From: Parachlamydiales bacterium | Lineage (GTDB): Bacteria > Chlamydiota > Chlamydiia > Chlamydiales > Parachlamydiaceae | Direction: 5' to 3' | DNA: 64,000 bases | Assembly (NCBI GenBank): GCA_020051075.1 | Contig: JAGVJP010000110.1 | Coordinates: forward strand, 1-64,000 | In this document: piece after piece, positions 33,401 through 39,400 of the stretch | How positions within the stretch are numbered: the first letter of the stretch is position 1 | How the letters are laid out: every line of letters starts with the position of its first letter | Made by a program: the position numbers

Positions 33401-36400
33401 GAAGGCGATGACGATGGAGGAAATGGAGAAGATTCCGGAACGCTACCGCCCCTCGGAGCTTGTGGAAAGAACACAAGTCATTGAACTCAATCTTCCCCCA
33501 TTCTCGAAGGTGTCGAACCGCCCGCAAGTCATCTTTGAAGGTGCAGATCCTCAACATCATGTAGAATGACAGACCATGCATCGAAAACTTGTCGGAACAT
33601 TTCCACTGGCGTGAGTTCGGTCCCACGCAATTTTTTGACCTCATCTTTTAACTGCCGTGCCAATATGGCAACCTCATTCGGTTCGTAGCCACCCTTTTTT
33701 AGGATCGTTTTAATCAACAAATAGGCATATTGCAAATCCCAAAACACCCTTTCTACAGAGTATTCCAAAAGAGATTCGAATGTATGGAAACTTCCTAAAT
33801 CGATGATTTTTAGTAAGCCCTCGTCAGAAATCATGATATTTCCTGAATGAAGGTCTGTGTAATGCATCTGATTGGATAATCCATAGCAGAAGGCATCTAA
33901 TAGCTGTGTTGCCTGCGTCATAGCCTCATTTCGAGAATACTGTCCCACTGAAACATTGTAAAGGGTCGATCCGGAAACCAACTCCAGCACTAGGAAAGAA
34001 GATTCATTGTCCTCTTCATTGTCAGGTGCAATCGTTCCACGGTCATAAGCTTTGATGATGTTTGGATGATCGAATTGAGTTCCAATTTCCCATTCACGTT
34101 CAATTGTGTATACGTTTGTTGCACGGAAAGAATTTCTTGGGAAAGGTGTCATGATGGGAGAGGTGGCTTGAGCCTGCTGGTGTGGTTTGGGCATGGGCCA
34201 TGACTTCGTAAAGAATTCGCTATTCATGTGAGTAGGTGTGCTAAAGACTTTGATTGCAACACTCTTTCCCTCTTCATTGGTTGCATCATAAACACTTCCA
34301 AAAGCGCCTCGACTTAAGTATTGATGCAATTCATAAGAATGCTGTTCTGTTTTGAGTACCTTGCCGATAATATCCTTTGGATCATCCCTTCCGTAAAGGC
34401 AGAAACTCCACACCAACAAAATATAAAATAAATTTTTCATGTTTTAACTTCTCGTTTATTAAAGAATTTAAGAAATAACATTATATTAATATACATAATA
34501 AAGTGAATAAAATCAAAACAGAAATGAAAAGATATGGACTATGGACAATGGACTATATGGACAAAAAATGGACTCATATGGACACATGTTTTATGCTTAC
34601 TCTGTCCATAATCGTCCATATAGTCCATATAGTCCATTTTCCATTTCGACTTTTGCAATTCCTTAAGCCTGTTGAATTATATAGACAAATCAGTTATCGT
34701 TAATCTCCCAATGAATCTCAGTTGCTAATATCCAATTGTATTTTCAAATTAAACCCCATGGAAACTCTAATGTTCCGTAAAATGCCCGTTATTCTTTTAG
34801 CTGTGATTTTTGGCATTGCATTTCTTGATAGCTGGATTCCTCTAAGCGTGAAGAGTGTTCTCTATGCCTTGAGTTTAAGCATTAAATCTGTGATCATCTT
34901 TGTGTTGCCGATGATCATCTTCATGCTGTTATTCAAAACTCTTGCCCAGCTGACTGGCCGAGCCACTACCCTTCTTCTAACCATTTTAGGAGCCGTCTGC
35001 CTCTCAAATTTCATTTCTACCATGATGAGCTACATCGTCGGTTCGACGATTTATCAATTTGATTTATCCATCACAGTGCCTCAAGATTCCGCTGGACTTC
35101 AGCCCGCCTGGATTTATCAAATGCCTTCCTTCATTCCCAATAGCTGGGCCATGTTTTCGGGGATGATCTCGGGAGCGTTGTTTTCATTTCTTCGCCCGGT
35201 TTTGGCAAGAAAAATTGCCGATCGTTTTGAAATTGTTGTCAGCACCCTTTTAAGGGGAATTCTATATCTCATTCCATTTTTCCTTGCTGGGTTTATTGTG
35301 AAGATCATCCACGACGAAGTCTTAGATAATATCGTACGCGATTACGCCTGGATTTTTGCAGTCGTGGCGTTTGCGCAATTGAGTTATGTTTTCATACTCT
35401 ACGCCTTCTCCCAAAACTTTAAATGGACTTCTTCCATCCAAGCGATCAAGAATATGCTGCCAGCTGCCATCGCTGGATTTGGGAGCATGTCCAGTGCAGC
35501 TGCAATGCCTCTGACGATAGTAGGAAGTGAAAAAAATGTTCAGGATCCTGCCTTGATCAGGCTGGCCATCCCAACGACAGTCAATATTCACTTGATTGGG
35601 GATTGTTTTGCGATCCCTATTTTTGCGTTTGCTATCTTGAAAAATTTTGGTGTGTCTGAGCCTGATTTTGCCTCTTATCTCCTGTTTGCCTGCTATTTCG
35701 TCATGGCTAAATTTTCTGTCGCTGCGATTCCTGGCGGCGGGGTGTTGGTGATGCTCCCGATATTAGAAAGCCAACTCGGCTTTACTGGAGAGATGTCCTC
35801 GCTTGTGACTGCGCTGTATATTTTATTTGATCCTGTCATCACGGCGACGAATGTCTTGGGGAATGGCGCGTTTGCTCTCATCTTAAACCGATTGAAATTA
35901 AAGGCTCTAGTGTCTAATTGCATAAATAACTAAGAGCCTTTATAGCTTCCGTAATCAGAATCTTGAATCACTTTTGGAGGAAGACCGCTCATGCTTCCAA
36001 GAATACCTACATCGAAGAGTAATAGCTTAAAACAATTTTCCTTTTTAATAAGTAATTTCTTCATTCGCTTCTTTGCGTCTCCGAACCTTTGCGCCTTTGC
36101 GTTTAAAAGAAGCTAAGGACCACTCTACACTCACAAATGTTTGCATCCTCACATCTTGTCTCTTTGCTTCTCTGCGTTAAAAAAAGGGGGAGGAGGTATC
36201 ACGAACCTTTTCGTTTATTACAGAATCTAGTATTCTGTTTTCCATAATCACTTGTGTGTGTGTCTTCATGTTATCAAAAACTCCATTTAAATTAGCGCTG
36301 ATCTGCGGAGGGCCTTCGAGAGAGAGGGGGATTTCCCTCAATTCAGCGCGCTCGGTGATGGATCATCTCAGCGGTCCTGGCATTGAGATCATCCCTCTTT

Positions 36401-39400
36401 ATGTCGACACCCAGAAGAAATTTTATTCCATATCCCCGGCCCAGCTCTACTCCAACACCCCGGCTGATTTTGACTATAAGCTAAGTAAGACAGCCAAATG
36501 GCTGGATGAACATTCTCTGAAAGCTGCGTTGTCTGTTGTCGACTTGGTCTTCCCCTTGATTCACGGCACTTTTGGTGAAGACGGCTCCTTGCAGGCATTG
36601 TTGGAGTCTTTGAACGTCCCTTTTATTGGACACAGCAGCAGTAGTTGCCACAAGATGTTTCACAAGTACCGCGCTGCTGAAACCCTGCGCCAGCACGCCT
36701 TTTTTACCTTGCCGCAGCTTCTCGTTATTGAGGATGCGCCAGACAAACAACTTCCCATTGAAAGGTTCTTTAACGAGCATGCTCTGCAGCAAGCCGTCGT
36801 CAAGCCGGCCATAGGAGGCTCTTCAATAGGGGTGTATCGTGTCCAAGATCCTGCGGAAGCACTGCGTCGCGTCGAGGAGATCTTCTCTCAGGGGATCGGG
36901 CATGAGGCAATCGTCGAGCCTCTCTGCGAGGGGAGCGAGTTTACTGTCGTTGTATTTGAGAATCCACAGGGAGAGCCCGTCGCCCTCACCCCCACTGAGG
37001 TTGAGTTGGACACCCAAGGCGGTGAGATCTTCGATTATCGCAAGAAGTATTTGCCGACGAATCAAGTGGTTTATCATACCCCATCGCGGTTTTCACCAGC
37101 TGTTGTTGAAGCAATCCGTTCTCAAGCGGAGCAGCTTTTCACTCTCTTTGGGATGAAGGACTTTGTCAGGCTGGATGGGTGGCTTTTACAAGAGGGGGCG
37201 ATCTACTTCTCTGATATCAATCCACTTAGTGGGTTAGAGCAAAATAGCTTCTTCTTCAGACAGACATCTCTTGTTGGCATGACCCATCGTTCCGCCTTGC
37301 AATATCTTGTGAGCCAAGCGTGCCGCCGTTATGGTTTAACACCTCCTCATCGGGAAGAATGCCAATCTGAGAGAAAATCTCCTGTCTACGTGCTCTTTGG
37401 CAATGGGAATGCTGAAAGACAGGTCTCACTCATGAGTGGAACAAACGTTTGGCTAAAGCTCCTGCAGTCTAAGGAATACTATCCTGTCCCCTATTTTATG
37501 GATCGAACTGGACACATTTGGGAATTGCCCTATTCGTTTACTTTGAACCACACCGTTGAAGAAATCCACACAAATTGTCTGGCTTCTGAGGCAGATGTCT
37601 CTTCATTGCAAGCTGTCATCCAAAAGGTTTGCTGCCGTCTGACCATCCCTGAACCTTCTCAATTTGCTCCTTCTCGGCTTTCCCTTGAGCGATTTCTGGA
37701 TAAAGTCAGGGAAGACAAAGCGTTTCTATTCCTCGCTTTACATGGTGCAGAAGGGGAGAATGGGGGCCTTCAGCAAAAGCTTGAAAAAGAGCAGATTTTT
37801 TTCAATGGGTCGAATGCTGCGGCTTCTGCCTTATGCATGGATAAATATCAGACAGCCTCTGTGATCACAGCGTTGGGCGATCCCGACATCTCCTCTCTGC
37901 CTAAGAAAAACTTGGTGCCCGCAATGTTGGAGAAGGCGACTTCTCAAGACTATGAACAGCTTTGGAAAAAGTGTTGTGCGGAGCTGCAGTCCGATCGTCT
38001 GATCATCAAGCCCCGTTTTGATGGATGTTCGGCTGGTATCGTTGTTCTAGAAACAGCCAGAGAGCTAGAAAGATATTTTCAGTTCGTTTTTGAAGAGACG
38101 TCCTCTATCCCTGCAGAGGCGTTCAGCCGCCAGCACTCTCCTATTGAAATGCCCACGGAAAAGGGGCAAGAGCTTATTATCGAACCGTATGTTGAGACCG
38201 ACACTATTACAATTGCTGATAATCACTTATATCACACCCATAAAACTGGCTGGGTTGAGTTGACAGTGGGGCTGCTTGAGCAAGCAGGGGAATATTACCC
38301 CTTTAACCCCAGCATCACTGTGGCTGAGGGGACGGTGTTGAGTTTGGAAGAAAAATTTCAGGGGGGGACAGGAGTGAACCTCACGCCACCGCCAGGAGAG
38401 GTGTTGTCGTCGGCAGCGACAGATAAAATCAAAAAGCTGACGGCCAAAGCTGCGGCTGCCCTGGGCATTCAAAACTATGCGAGGATAGATATCTTCTTTA
38501 ACCGCATCACTGAAAAGATGATTGTGATTGAAGCCAATACTTTGCCTGCGTTGACCCCTTCAACAGTCATATATCAGCAAGGGTTGAGTGAAGATCCTCC
38601 ACTATATCCAAGAGATCTTCTGGAAAGAATTATCAGTCACTCACATCTTTCATCTATTCAACGCAAAGAAGTTCAGACCTAAGATGCAACCATAGTTTTA
38701 CCCAAAACTTTTTTAACAAACACAGAGGAACAGAGGACACAGAGAGTAAAACATGGGAATCAATCAAGTAATCCTTTTTTTTGTCTCCTTAGCCATTGTT
38801 GCATTCGGACAGCCCGTCTGGAGCGGGTGGATTGCCCTCCTAGCAGCTTTTTGTGGCTATGCTCTTTTCTGGAGGGTTCTCTTAGATATCCCTTCAGCTA
38901 AACACAGATTTATCCTCTCTCTTGCTTGGTTTGGTTCTGTCCAGCTCGTCCAATATTCCTGGGTCCTTTCTCATCCCTACTTCTATATCTATTTCCTCCT
39001 TATCTTTACAGCAGCCCTATTTGGAACACAGTTCGCTCTGATATCGGTATGGATCAAACCGAGCACATTCAACCGTCTGTCATCACTTTTTGCTTTAGCG
39101 GGAGGGTGGGTGCTGCTTGAATGGTCCCGCCACTTCATCTTTTCTGGGCTGCCGTTTAATCCCTCTGGACTCGCTCTTTCCGGTGCGATCATCCCTCTGC
39201 AAACGGCTGCCTTAGGAGGCGTCTACGCCCTCTCATTCTTGGTGATTTTAACGAATTTGCTCTTTCTGAGGGCTTGGATCTCTCCTTCAGCCTCTTGGCG
39301 ATGGGCATTACCTCTTGCTGTGATGCTGTTTCCTTATTTTTTCGGATCACTCCATCTCTATTATCATGAACAGCAGCAGGCGTCTCAAAGAGAAAGTCAT

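Follow-up and report, generated by a model that had tools for sequence, protein, structure and literature searches.

A probable double D-Ala-D-Ala ligase gene of the plant DDL type in a Parachlamydiaceae genome

[quoted passage not shown] An earlier note on this DNA had called the second half degenerate, a description that does not agree with its retained catalytic residues, its confidently predicted fold and its conservation across the family.

Gene organization

The gene reads as an open frame from an ATG start; an alternative in-frame start, GTG at 36256, would give a protein of 808 aa. The gene, its parts and its neighbours are as follows.

34722..35933, + strand: upstream neighbour, transporter of the sodium:dicarboxylate symporter family (Pfam SDF, 124.2 bits)
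36268..38682, + strand: tandem Ddl-Ddl gene, ATG start, uninterrupted ORF, 804 aa plus stop
36289..37332, + strand: first Ddl unit, residues 8-355, whose active site is of the canonical Y type apart from the fixed E270D (Pfam scores of this half, PDB Ddl matches, residue table)
37333..37377, + strand: linker between the Ddl units, residues 356-370, without regular secondary structure in the AF2 model (DSSP)
37378..38643, + strand: second Ddl unit, residues 371-792, with a complete ATP-grasp site
37471..37650, + strand: insertion found only in the second unit (compared with E. coli DdlB), residues 402-461, with a long helix at 430-458 (DSSP)
38338..38388, + strand: second-unit omega-loop motif, residues 691-707, LSLEEKFQGGTGVNLTP
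38753..40435, + strand: downstream neighbour, apolipoprotein N-acyltransferase (Lnt; Pfam CN_hydrolase, LNT_N)

That two Ddl units share one chain, as the earlier note had proposed, is borne out by Pfam. The whole protein scores 138.8 bits for Dala_Dala_lig_N and 129.4 bits for Dala_Dala_lig_C, and each half alone exceeds both gathering scores (34.6 and 24 for PF01820 and PF07478), with 87.4 and 88.0 bits for the N half and 54.0 and 45.3 bits for the C half. The two halves are 19% identical (blastp E 1e-7). Ddl sequences of the PDB match the first unit (residues 7-355) with an E value of 2e-27 and the second with 6e-15, the latter being matched by 33 of them. We could not reproduce the earlier note's statement that every NCBIfam model falls short of its cut-off: TIGR01205 (285.6 against 245.65), NF002528 (268.2 against 262) and NF002378 (245.6 against 243) all pass as whole-protein sums, although only because the scores of both halves add up, and no equivalog model lies above its cut-off. 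Pfam finds no Mur ligase domain in the protein, the MurC-Ddl model NF011171 reaches 133.2 against a cut-off of 1015, and the D_ala_D_lac models of NCBIfam stay far under theirs (123.4 against 550).

Active site of the first unit

Both units were compared with E. coli DdlB at K97, K144, E180, E187, K215, R255, D257, E270 and N272; apart from Glu15/Arg255 and the Phe/Tyr switch, the roles of the compared residues are presumably those given in the DdlB literature. The first unit carries E19, H99, K133, K179, S185, S186, E217, E224, K260, Y261, R301, D303, D316, N318 and S327, and keeps all compared ATP, Mg and transition-state positions except E270, which is Asp (D316). The Mg-binding Glu270 is present in all Ddl motifs compared, and its replacement in the N unit is a fixed one, Asp being found in 109 of 116 family members while the other key positions are kept. 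The substrate triad is the canonical E19-S185-Y261, equivalent to the dipeptide-type E15-S150-Y216 of DdlB, and we take the first unit to be the probable dipeptide ligase. The protein as a whole thus has one canonical substrate site, since the triad is found in the N unit and not in the C unit. Conversely, the N unit may be the impaired one, with its Asp in place of Glu270, and the ligase at work would then be the C unit.

Active site and conservation of the second unit

The earlier note had left the catalytic residues uncompared. The comparison shows that the second unit retains every ATP, Mg and catalytic residue of DdlB, with gapless motif matches at all key positions, which argues against degeneracy. 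Its signature is E383, H492, K526, K581, C587, S588, E639, E664, K696, F697, R739, D741, E755, N757, T766 and V767. In the family, the C-unit equivalents of E15, H63, K97, K144, S151, E180, E187, K215, R255, D257, E270 and N272 are kept in 111 to 116 of 116 members, and the omega-loop columns L691, K696, F697, G700, G702 and N704 are invariant in 63 sequences; such conservation speaks of constraint and is by itself no proof of catalysis. Five positions of the substrate and adenine pockets differ from DdlB (S150C, Y210L, Y216F, S281T and L282V), and this pattern too is near-invariant among the 116 members: Cys stands at S150 in 109 of them, and Phe (F697) at Y216 in 115, as well as in 46 of 47 named members. 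The dipeptide triad is accordingly absent from the C unit, which has E383, C587 and F697. Both units' signatures recur in the 47 named sequences, which come from roughly a dozen phyla of bacteria, one plant and two green algae.

Insertions relative to DdlB (residues 402-461, 609-630 and 646-663) add about 110 residues to the second unit. Modelled alone by AF2 it reaches a pLDDT of 92.4, and the model superposes on liganded Thermus Ddl (6u1d_B) with a VIA-align Z of 37.7 and an rmsd of 2.1 over 323 of 326 residues; it is thus predicted to adopt the closed, ligand-bound Ddl shape. Mean pairwise identity within the family is 38.2% for the first unit and 37.4% for the second (1953 pairs).

These results bear on the view that the first unit alone works and that the second is a catalytically dead, decaying structural copy within a covalent pseudo-dimer. 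The lower Pfam and PDB scores of the C unit, its insertions, its altered S150/Y216 positions and the predicted binding between the halves would all agree with such a copy. We regard it as improbable, given that the ATP, Mg and catalytic residues persist across about a dozen phyla and plants and that K97, K144, K215, R255, D257, E270 and N272 would not stay fixed in a dead site; moreover, evolution of the C unit is not faster than that of the N unit, its model has the closed Ddl shape, and the changed positions are themselves fixed. The fixation of C, F, T and V at these positions points to selection for a different site and not to drift. From sequence and model together, the second unit appears diverged from canonical Ddl, with insertions, yet intact rather than degenerate. 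It is constrained as strongly as the first unit and most likely still binds ATP and catalyses a ligation, and its second-substrate preference or regulation is probably different, because the triad is fixed as E-C-F and T/V stand at the site of the second-substrate carboxylate. The C unit could alternatively serve as an ATP- or ligand-binding regulatory site.

Predicted packing of the two units

The AF2 model of the whole chain has a pLDDT of 92.5, dipping to 76 in the block 361-370 of the linker region, and a pTM of 0.92; its best Foldseek matches are all Ddl, with target TM scores of 0.78-0.89. When the N and C halves were modelled as separate chains, they gave an ipSAE of 0.85 against 0.03 for the best control, a mark that 116 of 157 solved complexes attain, as do 2 of 215 mismatched pairs. 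At least 87% of the contacts agreed between runs, and the partner pLDDT was at least 84. The predicted interface is pseudo-symmetric, all 22 mappable C-unit residues having an N-unit counterpart within 2 positions, and the insertion of the second unit contacts the first in the complex model (interface residues 422-432 and 446-463). Structures of Ddl homodimers have been solved, and for this reason the half-half score may reflect likeness to them. With this reservation, the models (confident whole chain, high interface score, equivalent surfaces) fit the covalent pseudo-dimer that the earlier note had offered as a possibility, in which the two units would pack against each other within one chain.

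Ddl and Mur genes in the genome

A PF07478 search of the contigs of assembly GCA_020051075.1 (133 contigs, 99.92% complete, 5.7% contamination) returned Ddl-Ddl as the only Ddl, as the earlier note had claimed. Two other matches were rejected: a biotin carboxylase-like frame on contig C63, which is not a Ddl, and a 440-aa ATP-grasp protein on contig C107 from which the Ddl N-terminal domain is absent. The precursor pathway lies on contig C4 in the order murF-mraY-murD-ftsW-murG-murC, with ddl absent from the cluster, and the same genome encodes a second MurF-like ligase. That murC stands alone also holds: it is a separate 448-aa gene, in a frame of 453 aa, in this dcw cluster, followed by an FtsQ-like ORF that starts 4 nt downstream, unlike the fusion of a Mur ligase with Ddl confirmed in a relative of the same family (L087). 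In all five same-family genomes without the double Ddl that were checked, a canonical Ddl scored above the cut-off, in four of them within frames of 796-825 aa; L087 is the confirmed fusion, and in the three others the frame of about 800 aa suggests a MurC-Ddl fusion. Double Ddl and MurC-Ddl act as alternatives within one family, and in the source lineage the double enzyme together with a stand-alone MurC would take the place of the relatives' fusion.

Distribution of the double Ddl

More than 120 full-length homologues share 51-89% identity with Ddl-Ddl. Counted apart from Ddl-Ddl itself, 119 proteins of 767-912 aa match it end to end; they include proteins from megabase-scale contigs, from Protochlamydia amoebophila and from P. 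phocaeensis. Within the phylum, the C half was found in 24 of 299 other genomes (E <= 1e-10), consistent with the rarity noted earlier (8 of 99 relatives). Full-length homologues also occur in Patescibacteria, Bdellovibrionota, Actinomycetota, Bacteroidota, Dependentiae and others. A chlamydial peculiarity is ruled out by these homologues and by plant DDL, a fusion already described (PMC9954125); as judged from sequence, the double architecture belongs to a plant-DDL-type family spread over many bacterial phyla. Of five large genome records, three (Moanabacter, Bdellovibrionota and alphaproteobacterial MAGs) have no strong TIGR01205 match other than the double gene.

That the gene is an artefact, either part of a contaminant contig or two adjacent ddl genes merged through faulty assembly or a frame error, is a reading to which we give almost no credence, even though the source is a draft assembly with some contamination. 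It is refuted by the full-length homologues, some of them on megabase-scale contigs; the reading frame is open across 804 codons; and the half-length forms of the family are mostly fragments, 7 of the 10 examined lying on contigs below 2.3 kb or being marked partial. A tree places the protein with Parachlamydiaceae (SH-aLRT support of 100%), and Lnt likewise stands downstream of the double-Ddl gene in two Parachlamydiaceae MAGs (L006, L042).

Proposed role

Taking into consideration that: (i) Ddl-Ddl is the one Ddl that accompanies a complete Mur pathway, and (ii) relatives carry fusions with Mur ligase and alanine racemase, we infer that it forms D-Ala-D-Ala in an ATP-dependent reaction. The fusions are natural ones, Ddl-Ddl-Mur ligase (P0149) and Ddl-Ddl-Mur ligase-alanine racemase (P0176), and in 7 of 26 loci examined the double Ddl has a gene for a Mur ligase or alanine racemase, or an fts gene, directly beside it or close by. 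As the genome's only Ddl, the protein would be the source of D-Ala-D-Ala, which MurF of the dcw cluster would add to the peptidoglycan precursor.

The Phe of the C unit raises the question of a division of labour, in which the N unit would make D-Ala-D-Ala and the C unit a depsipeptide or some other D-Ala-D-X, destined for a different precursor end or a different pathway. The single-unit enzymes from which the Phe rule derives keep the equivalent of Ser150, which counts against applying the rule here. F697 is nearly universal in the family, and in lactic acid bacteria a Phe/Tyr switch at this omega-loop site decides between depsipeptide and dipeptide activity (PMC5996685). One of the top structural hits to the C unit is the D-Ala:D-lactate ligase 1ehi, a match that does not discriminate because its Z ties, to within 1, with those of the best D-Ala-D-Ala ligases. 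A gene of the D-Ala-D-Ala dipeptidase family lies two genes downstream of the double Ddl in one Bdellovibrionales locus (L010), and the second MurF-like ligase of the source genome would also suit such a scheme. Against it, the UDP-MurNAc-pentapeptide of moss is reportedly the same as in ordinary Gram-negative bacteria (PMC9434261), VanH- and VanX-like genes are absent next to the Ddl-Ddl gene within the 64-kb window, and a MurF-like/alanine racemase fusion present in 32 of 32 genomes of the family does not co-vary with the double Ddl, present in 10 of the 32. On balance we find this division of labour unlikely. A broader two-product enzyme, whose second site, with its E-C-F triad and T/V carboxylate pocket, would join D-Ala to a D-hydroxy acid, another D-amino acid or the like, is a speculative reading to which we assign a rather low probability. 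If it were true, Chlamydiae, many host-dependent bacteria and plastids would make a second, unnoticed precursor end or D-Ala conjugate; both omega-loop tails are predicted to lie at the intramolecular interface, and one site of a two-product enzyme could then sense the other. The reading we prefer remains a double D-Ala-D-Ala ligase whose second unit most likely ligates as well.

Comparison with known systems

Each unit has the three-domain ATP-grasp fold of E. coli DdlB and DdlA and of Thermus Ddl, with the same ATP, Mg and catalytic residues and, judged from fusions and neighbours, the same place in the pathway. Canonical Ddl is a homodimer of identical sites, whereas Ddl-Ddl is one chain with two non-identical sites: the N unit differs by E270D and the C unit by its five substitutions and the inserted residues. 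The MurC-Ddl of Chlamydiaceae and many other Chlamydiae is likewise a protein of about 800 aa that contains Ddl; Ddl-Ddl differs in lacking a Mur ligase domain, MurC being a separate gene in the dcw cluster. The D-Ala:D-lactate ligases (Leuconostoc LmDdl2, PDB 1ehi; Lactobacillus Ddl) have Phe at Tyr216, as has the C unit (F697 after K696), and 1ehi aligns with the C-unit model at a Z of 36.7 and an rmsd of 2.8 over 346 residues, with an identity of only 21%; unlike these enzymes, the C unit is also changed at S150, S281 and L282.

The closest known system is plant DDL, represented by Physcomitrium PpDDL and Arabidopsis At-DDL (AT3G08840) and already described as two DDL enzymes fused together (PMC9954125). 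The moss knock-out loses D-alanine dimerisation (PMC9954125). According to the same source, AtDDL or its C-terminal part had not yet been shown to be a functional ligase; in Arabidopsis with insertions in the first half of DDL, the second-unit transcript and labelling persist, which its authors considered possible but unproven activity (PMC9954125). Published tables of plant genes with a chlamydial or Chlamydiae/CFB origin include DDL (PMC2376095, PMC3493653). In our quick tree the plant and algal clade is not sister to the chlamydial one; it branches from an unresolved node that it shares with Bdellovibrionota, Actinomycetota and a large clade of mixed membership. Eukaryotic DDLs have 80-400 extra residues, some with SAP or Rho_N, whereas the bacterial protein is without an N-terminal extension. 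In the alga Tetraselmis (P0216) the signature differs at one position per unit, including F to V. In the Coffea protein (P0191), as in the chlamydial one, Pfam finds the Ddl N and the Ddl C domain twice each; the two proteins are collinear, one unbroken alignment covering residues 8-789 of the chlamydial protein with 44% identity (E 4e-163); the 16-position active-site strings of both units are identical in Ddl-Ddl, Coffea and Myrmecia (P0208).

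Organization of the double ddl gene

The double ddl gene is an uninterrupted open reading frame (ORF) in which two Ddl units follow one another.

36268-38682, + strand: double ddl, from an ATG at 36268 to a stop codon at 38680-38682, 804 aa; N unit, residues ~8-355; C unit, residues ~371-792

Translation from an alternative in-frame GTG at 36256 would lengthen the protein by four residues, and the start is putative since alignments with homologues begin at residue 7-8. In Pfam, the whole protein carries two Dala_Dala_lig_N and two or three Dala_Dala_lig_C stretches. When scanned alone, residues 1-362 scored 87.4 and 88.0 bits against Dala_Dala_lig_N and _C, respectively, and residues 363-804 scored 54.0 and 45.3 bits; either half by itself exceeds both gathering scores (34.6 and 24), which bears out the tandem Ddl-Ddl architecture proposed in an earlier note. 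Aligned with one another, the two halves share 19% identity (E 1e-7). The same note held that no NCBIfam model reaches its cut-off, which could not be reproduced: with whole-protein scores, TIGR01205 (285.6 vs 245.65), NF002528 and NF002378 exceed theirs, albeit only because the scores of the two halves are summed. None of the NCBIfam equivalog models was above its cut-off for the double Ddl.

Active sites of the two units

To compare the two sites, E. coli DdlB (translated from NC_000913.3) was placed in the family alignments of the two halves. These alignments hold 116 sequences, namely 113 of 150 representatives, those of 700-1000 aa, and three named proteins, the other 37 being excluded for length. 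The key motifs of DdlB align without gaps with both halves. In the C unit, twelve positions are kept in 111-116 of the 116 sequences and five are changed.

Active-site positions of the C unit (E. coli DdlB residue first, residue of the 804-aa protein second; for changed positions, number of sequences with the change)
Kept: E15 = E383; H63 = H492; K97 = K526; K144 = K581
Kept: S151 = S588; E180 = E639; E187 = E664; K215 = K696
Kept: R255 = R739; D257 = D741; E270 = E755; N272 = N757
Changed: S150 to C587, 109/116
Changed: Y210 to L691, 115/116
Changed: Y216 to F697, 115/116
Changed: S281 to T766, 112/116
Changed: L282 to V767, 105/116

The N unit has the full canonical set, including S185 and Y261, except for an Asp at the Mg-binding position E270 (D316; 109/116). 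Across phyla, the two sites contrast: the N unit combines the E-S-Y triad (DdlB E15-S150-Y216) with Asp at the Mg site, while the C unit combines E-C-F with the canonical Glu. Both 16-position signatures were found again in a set of 47 named sequences from Chlamydiota, Patescibacteria lineages, Bdellovibrionota, Pseudomonadota, Actinomycetota, Bacillota, Planctomycetota, Dependentiae, Bacteroidota, one plant and two green algae, with the C-unit F in 46, the C-unit C in 44 and the N-unit D in all 47. For DdlB residues other than Glu15, Arg255 and the Tyr/Phe switch position, roles are reportedly described by Fan et al. (1994) and by Shi and Walsh.

Conservation is alike in the two units: in an alignment of 63 sequences (1953 pairs), mean pairwise identity is 37.4% for the C unit vs 38.2% for the N unit, and each has 24 invariant columns. 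AF2 modelled the whole chain with a pLDDT of 92.5 and a pTM of 0.92, and the C unit alone with a pLDDT of 92.4. Taking into consideration the retained active-site residues, the conservation equal to that of the N unit and the confident fold, we do not uphold the description of the second half as degenerate. Its diverged look is due to an old split from canonical Ddl and to insertions (residues 402-461, 609-630 and 646-663), rather than to decay.

Predicted association of the two units

The high whole-chain pTM indicates that the units are modelled in a fixed mutual arrangement. When the halves were modelled as two separate chains, the median ipSAE of three runs was 0.85, and the best of three controls gave 0.03; this mark is attained by 116 of 157 solved complexes vs 2 of 215 mismatched pairs, but since Ddl homodimers have already been solved, the score may mirror likeness to them and the binding stays a predicted one. 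At least 87% of the contacts were common to the runs, with a partner pLDDT of at least 84.

The predicted interface uses equivalent surfaces of both units, in DdlB numbering helix 21-32, positions 221-226, directly past the omega loop, and positions 279-296. Of the C-unit interface residues, 22 could be mapped, and each of these has an N-unit interface residue no more than two positions off; 23 further ones lie in C-unit-specific insertions, chiefly a long helix at residues 430-458. An interface that descends from a two-fold dimer and was later reinforced would be expected to show the pattern seen in the model, and, judged by its internal pseudo-symmetry, the N-C interface would be the homodimer interface. 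The covalent pseudo-dimer suggested earlier agrees with these models.

The best reading would then be an intramolecular pseudo-dimer with two live sites, in which the N unit, with its canonical triad, would supply D-Ala-D-Ala and the C unit may have an altered second-substrate preference or a regulatory role. The reverse assignment of the two roles is possible, given the E270D change in the N unit.

The only Ddl of the assembly

The assembly (2.94 Mb in 133 contigs, 99.92% complete, 5.7% contamination) was searched with the Ddl C-domain model, which matched four places, two of them being the halves of the double ddl. The third lies in a 454-aa frame that is biotin carboxylase-like, and the fourth in a 440-aa ATP-grasp protein without the Ddl N-terminal domain. 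The claim that the double gene is the only Ddl of the assembly is sustained. The 440-aa ATP-grasp protein is encoded on contig C107 (fetched locus L003, 1060-2382; ATP-grasp_4 44 bits, Dala_Dala_lig_C 37 bits), and its ORF overlaps the end of an upstream 304-aa ORF.

The stand-alone murC described in the note was also found. This 448-aa gene lies at the end of the dcw cluster on contig C4 (L094, 5943-16017), which has the order murF, mraY, murD, LysM protein gene, ftsW, murG, murC and FtsQ-like ORF. The FtsQ-like ORF starts 4 nt past murC, and no ddl lies between them on C4; in the MurC-Ddl fusion of relatives, the Ddl part sits where this genome has the FtsQ-like ORF. Since the genome has a complete pathway for the use of D-Ala-D-Ala and no other Ddl, the double ddl is the only candidate supplier. 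In Parachlamydiaceae such as the source organism, the sole Ddl belongs to the double-ligase family.

Distribution of the double-ligase family

A word-indexed search returned 119 further full-length proteins (767-912 aa, 51-89% identity), among them those of Candidatus Protochlamydia amoebophila, P. phocaeensis and Parachlamydiaceae MAGs. When the representatives of clusters at 50% identity were searched exhaustively, 363 clusters matched at E <= 1e-30; one is the Coffea DDL, 44% identical across residues 8-789, and two more are from green algae. Scanning the prokaryotes with one genome for each species yielded at least 557 relatives among at least 600 candidate stretches and, among the matches listed, full-length copies in many phyla. 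With such copies in many phyla, a plant and green algae, the double enzyme is not the chlamydial peculiarity that the note implied.

Within the phylum, 24 of 299 other genomes contain the C unit; within the same family, 10 of 32 genomes do. All five family members without the double Ddl that were checked have a canonical Ddl above the cut-off, four of them in frames of 796-825 aa, one of which is a confirmed MurC-Ddl fusion. Three of five large genome records from other phyla have no strong match besides the double gene; another of the five, a Dactylosporangium chromosome, has a canonical ddl as well. Where the double gene is the sole Ddl or the only strong match, the peptidoglycan of the organism would depend on it. 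On a Babeliales chromosome, both units of the double Ddl score ~230 bits against TIGR01205. Many of the carriers without another strong Ddl match belong to predatory or host-dependent lineages (Patescibacteria, Bdellovibrionota, Micavibrio-like, Dependentiae and Chlamydiota), a bias that may be mere sampling.

We considered whether stand-alone halves act as separate subunits and rejected it, as seven of ten half-length representatives were on contigs below 2.3 kb or marked partial. Three of the ten fall in clusters that include full-length members, and one N-only protein is on a 25.9-kb contig. In some relatives (genomes G085, G161 and G191), one or two in-frame stop codons interrupt the double ddl; these copies may be pseudogenes or reflect assembly errors.

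A quick tree of 49 rows (LG+G4, SH-aLRT support only, midpoint-rooted) was built from 42 of 80 fetched loci, hand-picked for near-full-length matches. The plant and green-algal clade has 100% SH-aLRT support but does not group with the chlamydial one, and leaves an unresolved node; a chlamydial origin of the plant DDL was not accepted on this tree and no donor is drawn. A deep second clade, 26-31% identical to the 804-aa protein, comprises loci of Dependentiae/Babeliales (L055, L056, L059, L062) and Bacteroidota (L067-L084); it keeps both signatures, with Cys instead of Val at the C-unit L282 position. At two Bacteroidota loci, a PASTA-domain protein gene lies 3' of the double ddl.

Gene fusions and neighbourhood

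There are natural proteins in which the double Ddl is fused to a Mur ligase (1262 aa) or to a Mur ligase and an alanine racemase (1638 aa). In a survey of 26 of the 80 loci, selected for full flanks (103 flanking ORFs scanned), Mur ligase, alanine racemase or fts genes adjoin the double ddl or lie near it in seven; a sodium:alanine symporter, a D-Ala-D-Ala dipeptidase family protein or GlmU/GlmS are neighbours at single loci. These fusions and neighbours assign the double ligases to the D-alanine branch of peptidoglycan synthesis. The double ddl of the window is flanked by an SDF-family symporter gene upstream and by lnt downstream, the latter common to two Parachlamydiaceae MAGs. Just upstream of the locus are:

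32706-33569, + strand: Thg1-like tRNA-His guanylyltransferase homologue (Thg1 74.7 bits)
33529-34440, - strand: protein with a eukaryote-type protein kinase domain

Two details were noted near other double ddl copies. In Candidatus Moanabacter (L017, 7348-8373), a 342-aa protein with a Dala_Dala_lig_C match only (45 bits) is encoded 1 kb 3' of the gene, and in a Bdellovibrionales locus (L010, 7895-8701) an M15 D-Ala-D-Ala dipeptidase family gene follows ddl and a MurF-like gene.

Besides the canonical murF in the dcw cluster, the organism has a fusion encoded on contig C68:

L093, 2718-5333, - strand: 870-aa fusion of a MurF-like Mur ligase and a complete alanine racemase

In a Mycobacteriales MAG, such a fusion (L040, 1459-3957) adjoins the double ddl, and in the protein P0176 it is joined to the double Ddl itself. 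In several genomes (G231, G117, G127 and others), the MurF-like/alanine racemase gene contains one or two in-frame stop codons. Its MurF-like part occurs in 32 of 32 genomes of the family and, across the phylum, in 62 of 299 other genomes. A tie between this fusion and the double Ddl, with two products and two adding enzymes, was rejected on the family counts (32/32 vs 10/32).

Comparison with known systems

In the open-access literature, we found no paper with an assay of one or the other unit of a bacterial double Ddl, or of the units separately, and no description of a chlamydial Ddl as a double enzyme; for Chlamydiae, a passage of PMC5814848 mentions the MurC-Ddl fusion alone. The architecture is known from plants. 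According to PMC9954125, At-DDL, as its Physcomitrella homologue, consists of two putative DDL enzymes fused, the fusion is present across the entire plant lineage, D-alanine dimerisation is lost in moss ddl knock-outs, and activity of the C-terminal part or of whole AtDDL is yet to be demonstrated. As to origin, passages of three papers list D-alanine-D-alanine ligase as one of 55 Plantae genes of chlamydial origin (PMC2376095), give "Chlamydiae/CFB bacteria" as donor of the DDL family (AT3G08840; PMC3493653) and place the moss Ddl closest to the FCB group (PMC9434261).

The gene studied here is one more bacterial member of this plant-DDL-type double ligase family, which is known but biochemically uncharacterised. 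The contrast between its N and C sites also bears on the plant enzyme, whose C-terminal unit, left in the Arabidopsis ddl insertion lines, may be a working ligase.
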